Virus record (IMG/VR): IMGVR_UViG_2531839331_000012
DNA length: 44,457 nucleotides
Direction: 5' to 3' (one strand)
Origin: a virus
Lineage: Duplodnaviria; Heunggongvirae; Uroviricota; Caudoviricetes
Within the stretch, counting starts at the first letter, position 1, and each line of letters starts with the position of its first letter. The notes beneath the pieces were generated by a model, which saw only the letters and a list, made by a program, of their open reading frames with translations, was not told the DNA's origin and searched no databases. Below are positions 36,778 to 44,457 of this stretch, piece by piece. The position numbers and the translations under genes were made by a program.

Positions 36778-39700
36778 ATGGGTAAAGGCAGCAGTAAGGG
36801 GCATACCCCGCGCGAAGCGAAGGACAACCTGAAGTCCACGCAGCTGCTGAGTGTGATCGATGCCATCAGCGAAGGGCCGGTTGAAGGTCCGGTGGATGGA
36901 TTAAAAAGCGTGCTGCTGAACAGTACGCCGGTGCTGGACACTGAGGGGAATACCAACATCTCCGGTGTCACGGTGGTGTTCCGTGCCGGTGAGCAGGAGC
37001 AGACACCGCCGGAGGGGTTTGAATCCTCCGGCTCCGAGACGGTGCTGGGTACGGAAGTGAAATATGACACGCCGATCACCCGCACCATTACGTCTGCAAA
37101 CATCGACCGTCTGCGCTTTACCTTCGGTGTGCAGGCACTGGTGGAAACCACCTCAAAGGGGGACCGGAATCCGTCGGAAGTCCGCCTGCTGGTTCAGATA
37201 CAGCGTAACGGTGGCTGGGTGACGGAAAAAGACATCACCATTAAGGGCAAAACCACCTCGCAGTATCTGGCCTCGGTGGTGGTGGATAACCTGCCGCCGC
37301 GCCCGTTTAATATCCGGATGCGCAGGATGACGCCGGACAGCACCACAGACCAGCTGCAGAACAAAACGCTCTGGTCGTCATACACCGAAATCATCGATGT
37401 GAAACAGTGCTACCCGAACACGGCACTGGTCGGCGTGCAGGTGGATTCGGAGCAGTTCGGCAGCCAGCAGGTGAGCCGTAATTATCATCTGCGCGGGCGC
37501 ATTCTGCAGGTGCCGTCGAACTATAACCCGCAGACGCGGCAATACAGCGGTATCTGGGACGGAACGTTTAAGCCAGCATACAGCAACAACATGGCCTGGT
37601 GTCTGTGGGATATGCTGACCCATCCCGCTACGGCATGGGGAAACGTCTTGGTGCGCGGATGTGAAAATGGGCGCTGTATGTCATCGGCCAGATGCGACAG
37701 TCGTGCCGGACGGTTTGGCGGCACGGAGCCGCGCATCACCTGTAATGCGTACCTGACCACACAGCGCAAGGCGTGGGATGTGCTCAGTGATTTCTGCTCG
37801 CGATGCGCTGTATGCCGGTATGGAACGGGCAGACGCTGAGTTCGTGCAGGACCGACCTCGATAAGGTGTGGACCTATAACCGCAGTAATGTGGTGATGCC
37901 GGATGATGGGCGCCGTTCCGCTACAGCTTCAGCGCCCTGAAGGACCGCCATAATGCCGTTGAGGTGAACTGGATTGACCCGAACAACGGCTGGGAGACGG
38001 CGACAGAGCTTGTGGAGGACACGCAGGCCATTGCCCGTTACGGTCGTAACGTCACGAAGATGGATGCTTTTGGCTGTACCAGCCGGGGGCAGGCACACCG
38101 CGCCGGGCTGTGGCTGATTAAAACGGAACTGCTGGAAACGCAGACCGTGGACTTCAGCGTGGGTGCGGAAGGGCTTCGCCATGTACCGGGGGATGTCATT
38201 GAAATCTGCGATGATGACTATGCCGGTATCAGCACCGGTGGTCGCGTGCTGGCGGTGAACAGCCAGACCCGGACGCTGACGCTCGACCGTGAAATCACGC
38301 TGCCATCCTCCGGTACCACGCTGATAAGCCTGGTTGACGGAAGTGGCAATCCGGTCAGCGTGGAGGTCCAGTCCGTCACCGACGGCGTGAAGGTGAAAGT
38401 GAGCCGGGTTCCTGACGGCGTTGCCGGATACAGCGTGTGGGGGCTGAAGCTGCCGACGCTGCGCCAGCGCCTGTTCCGCTGTGTGAGTATCCGTGAGAAC
38501 GACGACGGCACGTATGCCATCACGCCGTGCAGCATGTACCGAAAAGAAGCCATCGTGGATAACGGGGCGCACTTTGACGGACCGAGCGGCACGGTGAATG
38601 GGTCACGCCGCCGCGTGCAGCACTGACGCCGAAGTCACCGCAGACAGCGGGGAATACAGGTGCTGGCGCTGGGACACGCCGAAGGTGGTGAAGGGGTGAG
38701 CTTCCTGCTTCGCCTGACCGTGGCAGCGGATGACGGCAGTGAGCGGCTGGTCAGCACGGCCCGGACGACGGAAACCACATACCGCTTCACGCAACTGGCG
38801 CTGGGGAACTACAGGCTGACAGTCCGGGCGGTAAATGCGTGGGGACAGCAGGGCGATCCGGCATCGGTATCGTTCCGGATTGCCGCACCGGCAGCGCCGT
38901 CGCGGATTGAGCTGACGCCGGGCTATTTTCAGATAACCGCCACGCCGCATCTTGCGGTTTATGATCCGACGGTACAGTTTGAGTTCTGGTTCTCGGAAAA
39001 GCGGATTGCGGATATCAGGCAGGTTGAAACCACAGCCCGCTATCTTGGTACGGCGCTGTACTGGATAGCCGCCAGTATCAATATCAAACCGGGCCATGAT
39101 TATTATTTTTACGTTCGCAGTGTGAACACCGTTGGCAAATCGGCATTCGTGGAGGCTGTCGGTCAGCCGAGTGATGATGCATCAGGCTATCTGGATTTTT
39201 TCAAAGGCGAGATAGGGAAAACCCATCTGGCTCAGGAGCTGTGGACGCAGATTGATAACGGTCAGCTTGCGCCTGACCTGGCTGAAATCAGGACGTCCAT
39301 TACGGATGTCAGCAATGAAATCACACAGACCGTCAATAAGAAACTGGAAGACCAGAGTGCAGCGATCCAGCAGATACAGAAGGTTCAGGTTGATACAAAT
39401 AATAACCTGAACAGCATGTGGGCTGTGAAGCTGCAGCAGATGCAGGACGGACGCCTTTATATTGCGGGTATCGGTGCCGGTATTGAGAACACCCCTGACG
39501 GCATGCAGAGTCAGGTGCTGCTGGCGGCAGACAGGATTGCGATGATTAATCCTGCGAATGGCAACACAAAGCCGATGTTTGTTGGTCAGGGCGATCAGAT
39601 ATTCATGAATGAAGTGTTCCTGAAACGCCTGACGGCTCCCACCATTACCAGCGGCGGTAATCCTCCGGCATTTTCCCTGACACCGGACGGAGAGCTGACG

Positions 39701-40228
39701 GCGAAAAATGCCGATATCAGTGGCAGTGTGAATGCGAACTCCGGGACGCTCAACAACGTCACGATTAACGAGAACTGTCGGGTTCTGGGAAAACTGTCCG
39801 CCAACCAGATTGAAGGCGATCTCGTTAAAACAGTGGGTAAAGCTTTCCCGCGGGACTCCCGGGCACCGGAACGGTGGCCATCAGGGACCATTACCGTCAG
39901 GATTTATGACGATCAGCCGTTTGACCGGCAGATTGTTATTCCGGCGGTGGCATTCAGCGGTGCTAAACATGAGAGAGAGCATACTGATATTTACTCCTCA
40001 TGCCGCCTGATAGTGAAGAAAAATGGTGCTGAAATTTATAACCGTACCGCGCTGGATAATACGCTGATTTACAGTGGTGTTATTGATATGCCAGCTGGTC
40101 ACGGCCACATGACGCTGGAGTTTTCGGTGTCAGCATGGCTGGTAAATGACTGGTATCCCACAGCAAGTATCAGCGATTTGCTGGTTGTGGTGATGAAGAA
40201 AGCCACCGCAGGCATCAGTATCAGCTGA
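36778..40228 (+). pseudogene. J: Central tail fibre / host-specificity protein J, disrupted by multiple small frameshifts (three ORF segments 36778-37839, 37964-38626, 38660-40228) and with a non-lambda C-terminal receptor-binding end
   Basis: Segments align consecutively to recalled lambda gpJ; short out-of-frame stretches at about 37650-37720, 37790-37960 and 38590-38700 look like clustered 1-2-bp deletions. Confidence 0.8.
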
Positions 40229-40247
40229 ATTTTATAACCCATATACG

Positions 40248-40272
40248 GGCGCCAGAAATGGCGCCTTTTTTA
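40248..40272 (+). terminator. Rho-independent terminator after J (GGCGCC-AGAAAT-GGCGCC + TTTTTTA)
   Basis: Read directly. Confidence 0.7.
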
Positions 40273-40295
40273 TTGCAGAAAAGCGAGAGGTAATT

Positions 40296-40892
40296 ATGCG
40301 TAAAGTTTGTGCAGCCATTTTGTCCGCAGCCATTTGTCTGGCCGTATCCGGTGCGCCTGCATGGGCGTCTGAACATCAGTCCACGCTGAGCGCGGGGTAT
40401 CTTCATGCCTCGACGAACGTTCCCGGCAGCGATGATCTGAACGGGATTAACGTGAAATACCGTTATGAGTTTACGGACACACTGGGGCTGGTGACGTCTT
40501 CAGCTATGCAGGAGACAAGAATCGCCAGCTACCCGTTACAGCGATACCCGCTGGCATGAAGATTCCGTGCGTAACCGCTGGTTCAGCGTGATGGCGGGGC
40601 CGTCTGTACGCGTGAATGAATGGTTCAGCGCGTATGCGATGGCGGGGTGGCTTACAGCCGTGTGTCGACTTTCTCCGGGGATTATCTCCGCGTAACTGAC
40701 AACAAGGGAAAAACGCACGATGTGCTGACCGGAAGTGATGACGGTCGCCACAGCAACACGTCTCTGGCGTGGGGGGCTGGCGTGCAGTTTAACCCGACCG
40801 AATCCGTGGCCATTGATGTCGCTTATGAAGGCTCCGGCAGTGGTGACTGGCGCACTGACGGTTTCATCGTGGGTGTCGGTTATAAGTTCTGA
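40296..40892 (+). pseudogene. lom: Lom outer-membrane protein (Ail/Lom family), frameshifted
   Basis: N-terminal (40296-40559) and C-terminal (40620-40892) ORFs both match recalled lambda Lom; reading frame lost for about 30 codons in between. Confidence 0.8.
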
Positions 40893-40917
40893 TTAGCCAG
40901 GTAACACAGTGTTATGA

Positions 40918-40946
40918 CAGCCCGCCGGTTCTGGCGGGCTTTTTTG
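40918..40946 (+). terminator. Rho-independent terminator after lom (CAGCCCGCC...GGCGGGCT + TTTTT)
   Basis: Read directly. Confidence 0.7.
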
Positions 40947-40956
40947 TGGGGTGAAT

Positions 40957-43434
40957 ATGGCAGTAAAGATTTCAGGTGTACTGAAAGACGGCGCAGGTAA
41001 ACCGGTACAGAACTGCACAATCCAGCTGAAAGCAAAACGTAACAGCACCACGGTGGTGGTGAACACGGTGGCCTCAGAAAATCCGGATGAAGCCGGGCGT
41101 TACAGCATGGACGTTGAGTACGGGCAGTACAGCGTTATTCTGTTGGTGGAGGGATTCCCGCCGTCACATGCCGGGACCATCACCGTGTATGAAGACTCAC
41201 AACCGGGTACGCTGAATGATTTTCTCGGTGCCATGACGGAGGATGATGCCCGTCCTGAGGCACTGCGCCGTTTTGAACTGATGGTGGAAGAGGTGGCGCG
41301 TAACGCGTCCGCGGTGGCACAGAACACGGCAGCCGCGAAGAAGTCAGCCAGCGATGCCAGCACATCAGCCCGTGAGGCGGCAACCCATGCGACTGATGCT
41401 GCAGGCTCAGCACGCGCAGCCAGCACGTCAGCCGGACAGGCCGCGTCGTCGGCTCAGTCAGCGTCTTCCAGCGCAGGAACGGCATCAACAAAGGCCACTG
41501 AAGCATCAAAAAGTGCTGCCGCTGCAGAGTCCTCAAAAAGCGCGGCAGCTACCAGTGCCGGTGCGGCGAAAACGTCAGAAACGAATGCGGCAGCGTCACA
41601 ACAATCAGCAGCCACTTCTGCATCCGCCGCGACCACGAAGGCGTCAGAAGCTGCCACCTCAGCCCGGGATGCGGCGGCCTCAAAAGAGGCAGCGAAATCA
41701 TCAGAAACGAACGCATCATCAAGCGCCAGTAGTGCCGCTTCCTCGGCAACGGCGGCAGGCAATTCCGCGAAGGCGGCAAAGACGTCTGAGACAAACGCCA
41801 GGTCTTCTGAAACGGCAGCGGGACAGAGCGCCTCAGCTGCGGCAGGCTCAAAAACAGCGGCTGCGTCGTCTGCCAGTGCCGCGTCAACAAGTGCCGGGCA
41901 GGCCTCAGCCAGTGCCACCGCCGCCGGAAAATCGGCAGAAAGTGCTGCATCGTCCGCTTCAACAGCCACAACGAAGGCTGGCGAAGCCGCTGTACAGGCC
42001 AGCGCAGCAGCGAGGTCTGCTTCCGCAGCGAAGACATCCGAGACGAACGCGAAAGCGTCGGAAACCAGCGCAGAATCCTCAAAAACGGCTGCCGCATCGT
42101 CCGCCAGTTCTGCGGCGTCATCGGCATCATCTGCGTCTGCTTCAAAAGATGAGGCGACCAGACAGGCGTCAGCAGCGAAGGGCAGCGCCACGACGGCATC
42201 CACGAAAGCAACAGAGGCGGCAGGCAGTGCGACGGCAGCATCTCAGAGCAAAACTGCTGCTGAATCCGCTGCGACCCGTGCGGAAGCTGCTGCTGATCGT
42301 GCTGAAGAGATTGCCGGTGCAGTTGCGATGGAAGACGCAAGCCTTACAACTAAAGGTGTTGTGAAACTTAGCAGTGCTGTTGATAGCACCAGTGAATCGC
42401 TGGCCGCAACGCCAAAAGCAGTTAAAGCAGCCAATGACAATGCGAATAGCAGGGTGCCATCTAACCGAAAAGTTAACGGTAAAGCACTGACTGCGGATAT
42501 CACTTTAACCGCCGCGCATGTGGCTGCTTTTGCCAGAAGGGCAACGGATACGTATGCCGATGCGGATGGTGGCGTTCCCTGGAATGCCGAATCAGGCGCT
42601 TACAATGTCACCCGCTCTGGCGACAGCTATATTCTGGTTAACTTCTATACCGGAGTCGGAAGTTGCCGGACCCTGCAGATGAAGGCGCATTACAGAAATG
42701 GTGGTCTGTTCTACCGTTCTTCAAGAGACGGTTATGGTTTTGAAAGTGGTTGGGAGCAGGTTTACACGACTGGATTTAGACCTCAGCCGGCTGATATAAA
42801 CGCACCAACCGCTGCCGCCGGATGGTTAAATAGTGGTAACGGAACAGCATTTACGACTGCTCAGTTTATAACGTGGCTAAATAATCAGGGTGCATTTTCA
42901 AACAAATATTGGATTGCACGGTGCTCATGGGTTTACGCCAACAATAATTATATAGACGACACTGGTTGCGGTAGGATCGATCTATCTGGTTCCGTGATTG
43001 AGGTGTTTAGTAATAAGGCAACAAGCAATTACACTATTCGTGTTACAACGACAACAACATCGGGTCATGGTGGTGTTAATAATGCGGAATTTATTTATGT
43101 GTACAATGGAAGTGGTTATGCGCCAGGCTGGCGTCGTTCTTATAACACCAGAAACAAACCAACAGCTTCTGATGTAGGAGCATTACCGCTTTCAGGTGGC
43201 ACATTATCTGGGGGGGTAACGTCTTCTGGTGAGATCGTTTCAAAATATGCAAATGGTTTCCGCATTGCTTACGGTAACTATGGGTTCTTTATCCGTAATG
43301 ACGGCGGCAGCACATATTTCATGCTAACAGCATCAGGAGATACGTTAGGTTCATGGAACAGTTTGCGACCGATTACAATTAATAATACCAGCGGTGTTGT
43401 GTCCATTGGTAATGAACTGCGCCCCAAAGGTTAG
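40957..43434 (+). CDS. stf: Side tail fibre protein Stf (Ala/Ser-rich repetitive shaft; C-terminus probably truncated by IS insertion)
   Basis: 825 aa from ATG 40957; N-terminal about 350 aa match recalled lambda Stf; ORF terminates a few codons into IS-like inverted repeat. Confidence 0.75.
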   Translation: MAVKISGVLKDGAGKPVQNCTIQLKAKRNSTTVVVNTVASENPDEAGRYSMDVEYGQYSVILLVEGFPPSHAGTITVYEDSQPGTLNDFLGAMTEDDARPEALRRFELMVEEVARNASAVAQNTAAAKKSASDASTSAREAATHATDAAGSARAASTSAGQAASSAQSASSSAGTASTKATEASKSAAAAESSKSAAATSAGAAKTSETNAAASQQSAATSASAATTKASEAATSARDAAASKEAAKSSETNASSSASSAASSATAAGNSAKAAKTSETNARSSETAAGQSASAAAGSKTAAASSASAASTSAGQASASATAAGKSAESAASSASTATTKAGEAAVQASAAARSASAAKTSETNAKASETSAESSKTAAASSASSAASSASSASASKDEATRQASAAKGSATTASTKATEAAGSATAASQSKTAAESAATRAEAAADRAEEIAGAVAMEDASLTTKGVVKLSSAVDSTSESLAATPKAVKAANDNANSRVPSNRKVNGKALTADITLTAAHVAAFARRATDTYADADGGVPWNAESGAYNVTRSGDSYILVNFYTGVGSCRTLQMKAHYRNGGLFYRSSRDGYGFESGWEQVYTTGFRPQPADINAPTAAAGWLNSGNGTAFTTAQFITWLNNQGAFSNKYWIARCSWVYANNNYIDDTGCGRIDLSGSVIEVFSNKATSNYTIRVTTTTTSGHGGVNNAEFIYVYNGSGYAPGWRRSYNTRNKPTASDVGALPLSGGTLSGGVTSSGEIVSKYANGFRIAYGNYGFFIRNDGGSTYFMLTASGDTLGSWNSLRPITINNTSGVVSIGNELRPKG
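41330..42300 (+). repeat. Imperfect tandem coding repeats inside stf (recurrent A-K-T-S-E-T-N-A / S-A-A-x-S units)
   Basis: Repeated GC-rich Ala/Ser codon blocks; generate long spurious ORFs in other frames and on the opposite strand. Confidence 0.7.
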
Positions 43435-43459
43435 ACACCAGACCAAAAACTGAGGATGC

Positions 43460-43966
43460 ATGGAAAAGTTTTCATTGGAGTTCAAAAAGGTAGTATCAGA
43501 AAAGTACCTGGAGGGAGAGTTGAGTCTGAAATCTGTAGCAAGGATGTACGGTATCAGTCCCTGCACAGTAAGAAAATGGGCTTATGCCTATCGGGAACAT
43601 GGGATAAGCATACTTACGGGTAAAAAAGGACGCTATTCTGCTGAGTTAAAACTCACAGTAGTAAAAGAAGTCGTGGATGACTGTTTTTCTGTTCGTGAAG
43701 TAGCGGTAAAACACGGAATACCAGCCTTTGGTACTGTATGCAACTGGCTTGAAAAATATAGAAAATATGGCGAAGATGCTTTCATTCGAAAAAATAAAAA
43801 GAGTATTCCTGTGCCGGATAAAAGCGCCATTTCAGCACCACCACTACCAACATTAACCAAAGATGAGAGAGAAGAACTTGAACAACTCAGGGTCGAGAAT
43901 GCCTACTTAAAAAAGCTGAAAGCCTTGGTTCAGCAGAAAACATGCTCAACGTTCAGGAAAAAGTGA
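43460..43966 (+). CDS. IS3-family transposase OrfA (HTH DNA-binding subunit)
   Basis: 168-aa ORF with HTH and leucine-zipper-like C-terminus; SD GAGG; slippery A AAA AAG at 43909-43915. Confidence 0.8.
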   Translation: MEKFSLEFKKVVSEKYLEGELSLKSVARMYGISPCTVRKWAYAYREHGISILTGKKGRYSAELKLTVVKEVVDDCFSVREVAVKHGIPAFGTVCNWLEKYRKYGEDAFIRKNKKSIPVPDKSAISAPPLPTLTKDEREELEQLRVENAYLKKLKALVQQKTCSTFRKK

Positions 43967-44457
43967 GCATTGTGAATGAACTAAGGCAGGAATGGCCATT
44001 GTCCCGATTGTTAATTGTTTCCGGGCTGCCCCGGAGTACATTTTACTATCATGTCAGACGGCTTGCTGCTCCTGACCGGTATCAGTCTGCCAGAGCGCTT
44101 GTGCTGAAAATTTATCACCAGCACAAAGGCCGCTATGGTTACAGACGCATCAGGCTGGCATGTCGTAACGAGGGGGTTTTACTTAATGGTAAAACCGTCA
44201 GAAAACTGATGAAGGAACTGGGTATTAGCAGCCTGATCCGCGTTAAAAAATACCGTTCATATAAAGGAGAACAAGGACGAATTTGCGATAATCTCCTGAA
44301 ACGCAATTTTGATGCAAAACGCCCCAACGAGAAGTGGGTTACAGATGTCACTGAATTTAAAGTGAATGGCAAGAAGCTGTATTTGTCGCCCGTCATGGAT
44401 CTTTATAATGGAGAAATAATTTCCTATAACCTCGCCACTCGCCCTCAACCTTCAATG
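43909..44457 (+). CDS. IS3-family transposase OrfB (integrase catalytic domain), -1 frame, 3' partial
   Basis: Open -1 frame from slippery site to window end, hand-translated (KKAESLGSAENMLNVQEKVSIVNELRQEWPLSRLLIVSGLPRSTFYYHVRR...). Confidence 0.7.

Follow-up and report, generated by a model that had tools for sequence, protein, structure and literature searches.

The window, a 44,457-nt stretch of DNA catalogued as IMG/VR virus record IMGVR_UViG_2531839331_000012 (Caudoviricetes), is the end of contig AQAF01000034.1 of assembly GCA_000358165.2. It starts in ybhC, contains a lambdoid prophage inserted at att-lambda, the attachment site of lambda, and closes with the side tail fibre gene, stf, whose reading frame runs into an insertion sequence (IS) of the IS3 family; the contig itself stops 2 nt later, inside the IS. 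A first-pass annotation, made from the letters of the window alone, had placed an IS3-family element at the 3' end of stf and proposed that the C-terminal region of Stf and the adjoining gene tfa were displaced or lost. We compared the locus with complete Escherichia coli genomes and with draft assemblies that carry neighbouring accession numbers (AQEP, AQAA, AQAB, AQAC, AQAD and AQAE; hereafter, sister assemblies), which cluster membership assigns to the strain series E. coli P0302293.x.

The stf gene and its IS3-family element

The gene lies after J and lom, the position of a lambda-type stf, and its true start is the ATG at 40957 (MAVKISG...) rather than the GTG at 40951 (Table 1). Its stop codon, at 43432-43434, falls six codons past the junction with the IS, in agreement with the first-pass description of an open reading frame (ORF) that ends a few codons beyond a terminal inverted repeat. 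In the 827-residue translation from the GTG, the domains phage_tail_N (PF08400, residues 3-136, 2e-72) and Gp34_trimer (residues 711-810) are recognizable, and the truncated product retains both the N-terminal attachment domain and the gp34-like trimerisation domain. Within the window, the ORF is without the C-terminal gp37-like tip, and no tfa directly follows the stop.

The nearest intact relative, in E. coli NCCP 13717, encodes a 1190-residue Stf followed by tfa, is 97% identical in amino acid sequence over residues 1-819, and reads through the junction point (CCATTGGTAATGGACT; ...GTGTCCATTGGTAATGGACTAAATG...). A prophage of strain LD22-1, at the same chromosomal site, has a 1132-residue Stf together with tfa. 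None of the relatives ends at residue 819 (...VSIGN), the last native residue in the window, and the IS is not downstream of an intact stf-tfa pair. The insertion is in stf, as the first-pass annotation had it, but at an internal site, after codon 819 of the 1190 in the intact gene and at about 69% of its length, rather than at its natural 3' end. The left junction, GTGTCCATTGGTAA joined to TGAACTGCG, recurs in AQEP, AQAA, AQAB and an IMG/VR contig, and was found in none of 5426 complete E. coli genomes.

Table 1. Features at the stf end of the window; positions count from the first letter of the window.
Feature	Position	Strand	Remarks
Probable collapsed-repeat consensus: J, lom, 5' stf	37600..42102	.	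>75 allele switches, 32 private 1-bp deletions
Truncated side tail fibre ORF, stf'	40957..43434	+	819 native codons, then 6 IS codons (ELRPKG) and stop
Target half-site GTGTCCA	43399..43405	+	7 nt before the IS tip; partner TGGAC just past the IS in the uninterrupted gene
Left copy of 4-bp target-site duplication GTAA	43409..43412	+	Second copy at the right junction in a sister contig
IS3-family IS (probably IS150 group), nt 1-1045 of 1420	43413..44457	+	Cut by the contig end; 100% identity to the E. coli 600468 copy (L001 2503-3547)
Left inverted repeat	43413..43438	+	Outer 14 nt match the right end perfectly; TAGACAC block at IS positions 20-26
orfA, 168 aa, helix-turn-helix (HTH) DNA-binding protein	43460..43966	+	HTH_28 4.5e-18, HTH_Tnp_1 1.7e-17
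-1 programmed frameshift heptamer A AAA AAG, orfA frame	43909..43915	+	-1 shift gives fused OrfAB
orfB, N-terminal part, -1 frame	43915..44457	+	HTH_21 and start of rve (DDE), first catalytic D (WVTDVTEF)
Predicted 11-bp stem, candidate frameshift stimulator	43922..43987	+	Begins 7 nt after the heptamer

The left end of the IS, TGAACTGCGCCCC, falls at 43413, where the first-pass annotation had seen a terminal inverted repeat. At least 10 complete copies share a total length of 1420 bp, and we used as reference the copy lying between dadX and cvrA in E. coli 600468, at L001 2503-3922. The right end, ...GCAGTTCA in sister assemblies, is a perfect inverted match to the left one over 14 of 14 positions (TGAACTGCGCCCCA ... 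TGGGGCGCAGTTCA), with TG...CA tips; the left repeat is the only one of the pair inside the window, which holds 1045 of the 1420 nt, so that the element does run past the window as first described. The interior of the repeats is conserved among relatives with 74-95% OrfB identity, and its TAGACAC block resembles the target half-site discussed below. The stop codon of the truncated stf is the TAG of this same block.

A -1 shift at the A AAA AAG heptamer would join orfA to orfB, as the first-pass annotation had read them, in a 448-residue OrfAB without an internal stop. RefSeq labels the same coding sequence of complete copies "programmed frameshift". All three motifs of the DDE catalytic domain (D, D and E) are visible in the full copy, the first D being the only one included in the window.

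To place the element, we used positions 43405-44457 (1053 nt) as a megablast query and obtained matches in 297 of the 5426 complete E. coli genomes, 197 of them with at least 80% query coverage; over the whole set the IS occupies 449 places. Every match examined is annotated "IS3 family transposase", and the majority of alignments begin at query base 7, two bases ahead of the TG. Full-length OrfB scores 342.7 bits against the IS3 model of NCBIfam (NF033516; cutoff 160), and its nearest named relatives in pairwise matches are the OrfB proteins of ISKpn8 (57.9% identity) and IS150 (57.6%). The features characteristic of the family are present: overlapping ORFs with a -1 orfB and a slippery site, a DDE (rve) domain, TG...CA inverted repeats and a length of 1420 bp, within the family range of about 1.2-1.55 kb. 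So is a target duplication of 3-4 bp, which is GTAA at stf and AAA, TTTA, CGCA, ATAT or AAAA elsewhere, with 5 bp at one site. By these sequence comparisons the first-pass assignment to the IS3 family is well founded, since the element is identical to annotated IS3 copies and has the Pfam and NCBIfam domains; on its pairwise OrfB matches we place it provisionally in the IS150 group.

With IS150 and ISKpn8, the element shares two ORFs, a -1 frameshift at A AAA AAG, an OrfA with a double HTH, a DDE (rve) OrfB, TG...CA ends, duplications of 3-4 bp and a length of about 1.4 kb. It differs from them in an OrfB identity of only 57.6-57.9% and in having a clear target motif; to our knowledge, no target motif has been reported for IS150. 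No name derived from ISfinder was attached to the element in the annotated records examined (RefSeq and PLSDB give only "IS3 family transposase" at any identity level, and NCBIfam only the family model), and an exact scan for its left end in species-representative genomes gave no matches. IS911, the best-studied element of the family, is alike in its OrfA/OrfAB frameshift control. IS911 moves by copy-out/paste-in transposition, and the present IS would presumably follow this route of the family, through a circular intermediate.

The right junction and the displaced end of stf in sister assemblies

We located the right junction by searching a protein database with the 371 residues missing from Stf. 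The search returned an orphan ORF of 360 residues and 100% identity on a contig of 1470 nt from sister assembly AQAA (L030), on which the right end of the IS (...GGGGCGCAGTTCA) is followed by GTAATGGACTAAATG..., the remainder of stf and the beginning of tfa. Setting this junction (...GCAGTTCA joined to GTAATGGACTAAATG) against the intact CCATTGGTAATGGACT identifies the target duplication as GTAA, and both the right inverted repeat and the target-site duplication that the first-pass annotation proposed to look for were in this way found in sister assemblies. The most complete view comes from a 568-kb contig of AQEP (L031), with the order J (1159 aa), lom (199 aa), stf' (825 aa), IS (OrfAB, 448 aa), stf'' (a 350-residue ORF), tfa, a methyltransferase gene, potB and potA. 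AQAC, AQAD and AQAE have the same right side as AQEP; in the sister assemblies, distal stf and tfa lie 1.42 kb beyond the break. A scan of viral contigs for the right junction gave no matches.

Excision in silico reconstituted the gene. Joining positions 40957-43412 of the window to the L030 sequence, minus one GTAA, produced an intact ORF of 1190 residues that aligns without gaps to the NCCP 13717 Stf at 98.3% identity. Stf might be supposed to end naturally at this point, with the IS merely downstream of a complete gene, and in favour of this there is nothing beyond the presence of a stop codon in the ORF. That stop, like the six codons before it, comes from the IS, the closest relatives run 371 codons further and read through the junction, and excision restores the full-length frame; we rejected this explanation as scarcely credible. 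An assembly artefact that created the junction with no insertion behind it would find some encouragement in the poor consensus quality of the adjoining region. Such an artefact would have to join the two sequences exactly at the tip of the IS, recur in AQEP, AQAA, AQAB and the IMG/VR contig, be matched by a right junction with a 4-bp duplication, and fit the target motif of the element, and we consider it very improbable.

We therefore favour, with a probability of about 0.88, a transposition of the 1420-bp IS3-family element, probably of the IS150 group, into stf of a lambdoid prophage as a simple insertion with a 4-bp duplication. The IS splits stf after codon 819 and is flanked by the duplicated GTAA, and the truncated gene is read six codons into the IS. 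In this isolate, the right end of the IS would then be linked to GTAATGGACT and potB.

Several points weigh against this account. The right junction is seen in five assemblies with neighbouring accession numbers (AQEP, AQAA, AQAC, AQAD and AQAE) and not in the window's own AQAF. A sister contig, L032 (AQAA01000228.1, 2543-4200), joins stf' and the IS to cvrA and not to distal stf. The stem predicted after the heptamer, which is suggestive as a stimulator of frameshifting, has a z-score of just -1.5 relative to shuffled sequence and is not significant.

The first two points bear on whether the insertion was followed, in this isolate, by an IS-mediated deletion or inversion that left distal stf and tfa no longer beside the IS, or gone. 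The window stops inside the element, with the right side of its own copy unseen, and L032 runs from stf' through the IS to cvrA. Many strains carry a second copy in the dadX-cvrA spacer, which is presumably only tens of kb from potB on the K-12 map. Other copies of the IS have hybrid flanks and no target duplications (L026, L016 and L018). The assembly that gave L032, however, also contains L030, with the IS end, GTAA, distal stf and tfa, and the simple arrangement is present in four other sister assemblies, once inside a 568-kb contig. A wrong assembler path is moreover to be expected here, because a 1.4-kb repeat exceeds the length of short reads; the L032 join is either such a path through the repeat or a real IS-IS recombination in that isolate. 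A rearrangement after insertion is, in our estimate, improbable.

With a simple insertion as the preferred explanation, distal stf and tfa have been displaced by 1.4 kb and not deleted. For this isolate we infer as much from the sister assemblies, because the right junction is seen only there. Of the two fates that the first-pass annotation left open, displacement is the one borne out, since five sister assemblies carry distal stf and tfa after the IS, and loss is not.

The displaced part contains Collar and Phage_fiber domains and matches the receptor-binding tip of T4 gp37 (PDB 2XGF, E = 3.2e-82). Its 371 codons are without a start codon or a ribosome site. Side-fibre function is likely to be lost, as the first-pass annotation held, because this part holds the gp37-like tip, on which the Tfa chaperone acts, and it is reasonable to suppose from the sequence that the truncated Stf cannot form working side fibres. 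A scan of the IS and distal stf for promoters and terminators found no more sites than in shuffled sequence, and we therefore make no judgement on the expression of tfa or of the orphan distal fragment.

In lambda, the side fibres bind OmpC reversibly and speed adsorption, the C-terminus of Stf is the receptor-binding part, and Tfa assists assembly (PMC7291167). Stf is non-essential there, and laboratory lambda (PaPa) has a frameshifted stf, lacks side fibres and is nevertheless viable (PMC7291167). The present prophage resembles it as a lambdoid phage with a broken stf, and by this analogy the effect would be slower adsorption rather than death of the phage. The two differ in that the present prophage was broken by an IS, which has parted tfa from stf as well, and in that the Stf affected is a longer mosaic, 1190 residues as opposed to 774, with a shaft rich in Ala and Ser. 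Between positions 41350 and 42350, about 330 residues of this shaft form a low-complexity stretch with an abundance of Ala, Ser and Thr, which also yields long spurious ORFs on both strands. For this genome the insertion is of little consequence: one prophage has probably lost its side tail fibres.

A probable chimera of two prophages in the last 7 kb of the window

The window was compared with a prophage of strain G3 (CP195958.1) that has an identical tape-measure protein. Up to 36.4 kb, the two differ at 4 of 14,600 positions, and the ybhC/integrase end of the window matches G3 at 99.9%. From 37.6 to 42.1 kb, a region that covers J, lom and 5' stf, the sequence alternates more than 75 times between the allele set of the att-lambda prophage and that of a prophage adjacent to potB. 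Beyond 42111, and as far as the IS, it agrees with the potB-adjacent prophage of the sister assemblies at all 362 informative sites.

The same region contains 32 single-base deletions present in no relative, which are tightly clustered: 15 fall within 285 nt (37626-37910), 14 within 170 nt (38523-38693) and 3 in lom (40499-40647). They break J into ORFs of 353, 220 and 522 residues and lom into ORFs of 87 and 90 residues. In sister assemblies, J (1159 aa) and lom (199 aa) are intact upstream of the same interrupted stf, and potB lies downstream. Because of these intact copies, we read the deletions in J and lom as most likely errors of assembly or consensus and not as the marks of pseudogenes.

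The 37.6-42.1 kb region is thus probably a consensus over a collapsed repeat, to which two resident lambdoid prophages contributed, and not a decaying gene. The contig would then cross from the att-lambda prophage, which makes up the greater part of the window, to the prophage beside potB, and it is probably the latter and not the former that owns the interrupted stf. The insertion in the actual genome would be in the potB prophage, and the window would join it to the att-lambda prophage through the collapsed repeat. The last 7 kb of the window should accordingly not be taken as a real haplotype. This probable chimeric origin of J, lom and 5' stf could not have been seen by the first-pass annotation from the sequence of the window alone.

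The window could instead be faithful, with the att-lambda prophage itself carrying the interrupted stf and the J-lom-stf mosaic having arisen by natural recombination with a second prophage. The tail-fibre regions of lambdoid phages are known to be mosaic, and the contig runs unbroken between ybhC and the IS. Natural recombination would, however, have to account for more than 75 alternations of parental alleles within 4.5 kb and for clustered private deletions that leave J in three ORFs and lom in two, while the sisters have both genes intact upstream of the same insertion with potB downstream. We regard a faithful window as unlikely. The K and tape-measure proteins of the window, used as probes for the att-lambda prophage in the sister assemblies, proved too widespread, and the sisters were absent among the places listed.

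Target sites of the element

The insertion in stf is ordinary biology; the only possibly new point is the apparently strong preference of the element for its target. We compared 16 distinct left flanks of IS copies and found the motif YGTCC starting 12-15 nt ahead of the IS tip in 14 of them. A complete site is palindromic, GTGTCCA-N3-[3-5 bp duplication]-N3-TGGACAC, and is used in either orientation. The commonest site is in the left ends of IS66-family elements, where it lies after the outer terminus (...CGCTTAC) and before the start codon of tnpA. In the dadX-cvrA spacer (L001 2480-4010), about 75 nt of such a left end survive as the target, from the palindrome to the terminus ...CGCTTAC, and across strains the IS occupies this remnant in both orientations.

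Within 12.7 kb of the intact relative, GTGTCCA-N5-13-TGGAC matches nowhere but at the stf site, GTGTCCATTG[GTAA]TGGAC, against 0.01 matches expected. This site was probably chosen for its likeness to the preferred palindrome. Related elements from Enterobacter and Serratia (92-95% OrfB identity) and from E. coli (74%) adjoin IS66-family genes at a similar palindrome; in a relative from Pantoea (88%) the palindrome is degenerate and no IS66 genes adjoin it. Three copies of the IS are without a target duplication. Two of these, L016 (1127) and L018 (reverse complement, 1290), are also without the motif, and the third, L026 (3007), has hybrid flanks, with rhsD on the left and an IS66 end on the right. 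All three are probably secondary IS-mediated rearrangements.

These flanks suggest, tentatively, that a clade of the IS (74-100% OrfB identity; Escherichia, Enterobacter and Serratia) may be sequence-specific for the centre of GTGTCCA-N~10-TGGACAC, that its home may be the stretch between terminus and tnpA of IS66-family elements, and that the stf site may be an accidental mimic. We would sooner doubt this generalization than assert it. If it were true, landing in IS66-family elements would probably uncouple their transposition genes. We found no description of such a target preference in the searchable literature, a search that did not extend to ISfinder.

IS3-family elements with a palindromic target are known in IS1397 and ISKpn1, which insert into REP palindromes, a specificity attributed to the transposase (PMC1525189). 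Like them, the present IS goes into the middle of a particular short palindrome and duplicates 3-4 bp. The target differs, being GTGTCCA-N~10-TGGACAC, mostly in IS66 left ends, as opposed to the REP sequence GCCGGATGCGGCGTG joined to AACGCCTTATCCGGC, and REP was found in 0 of the 16 distinct flanks; it is by target site that we set the element apart from IS1397. If the preference is genuine, the present IS would join the REP-targeting IS1397 and ISKpn1 as a target-specific IS3 element of a second kind. It would also offer a testable case of target capture through a motif resembling the inverted repeat, of modest interest for the transposition field.

A sequence similar to the half-site is found inside both inverted repeats of the element, 19 nt in from the tip: TTGTCCA in the right repeat and GTGTCTA in the left. 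IS911 can be targeted beside sequences that resemble its own inverted repeats, and the N-terminal domain of its OrfAB binds the interior of the repeat. Because of this resemblance and this binding, we hypothesize, by analogy, that the DNA-binding domain that reads the inverted repeat may also tether the present IS to its target. The comparison with IS911 has one difference, in the spacing of the look-alike motif, which is 7 nt away from the point of insertion at the target but 19 nt away from the tip within the inverted repeat; the target does not, therefore, simply copy the end of the repeat.

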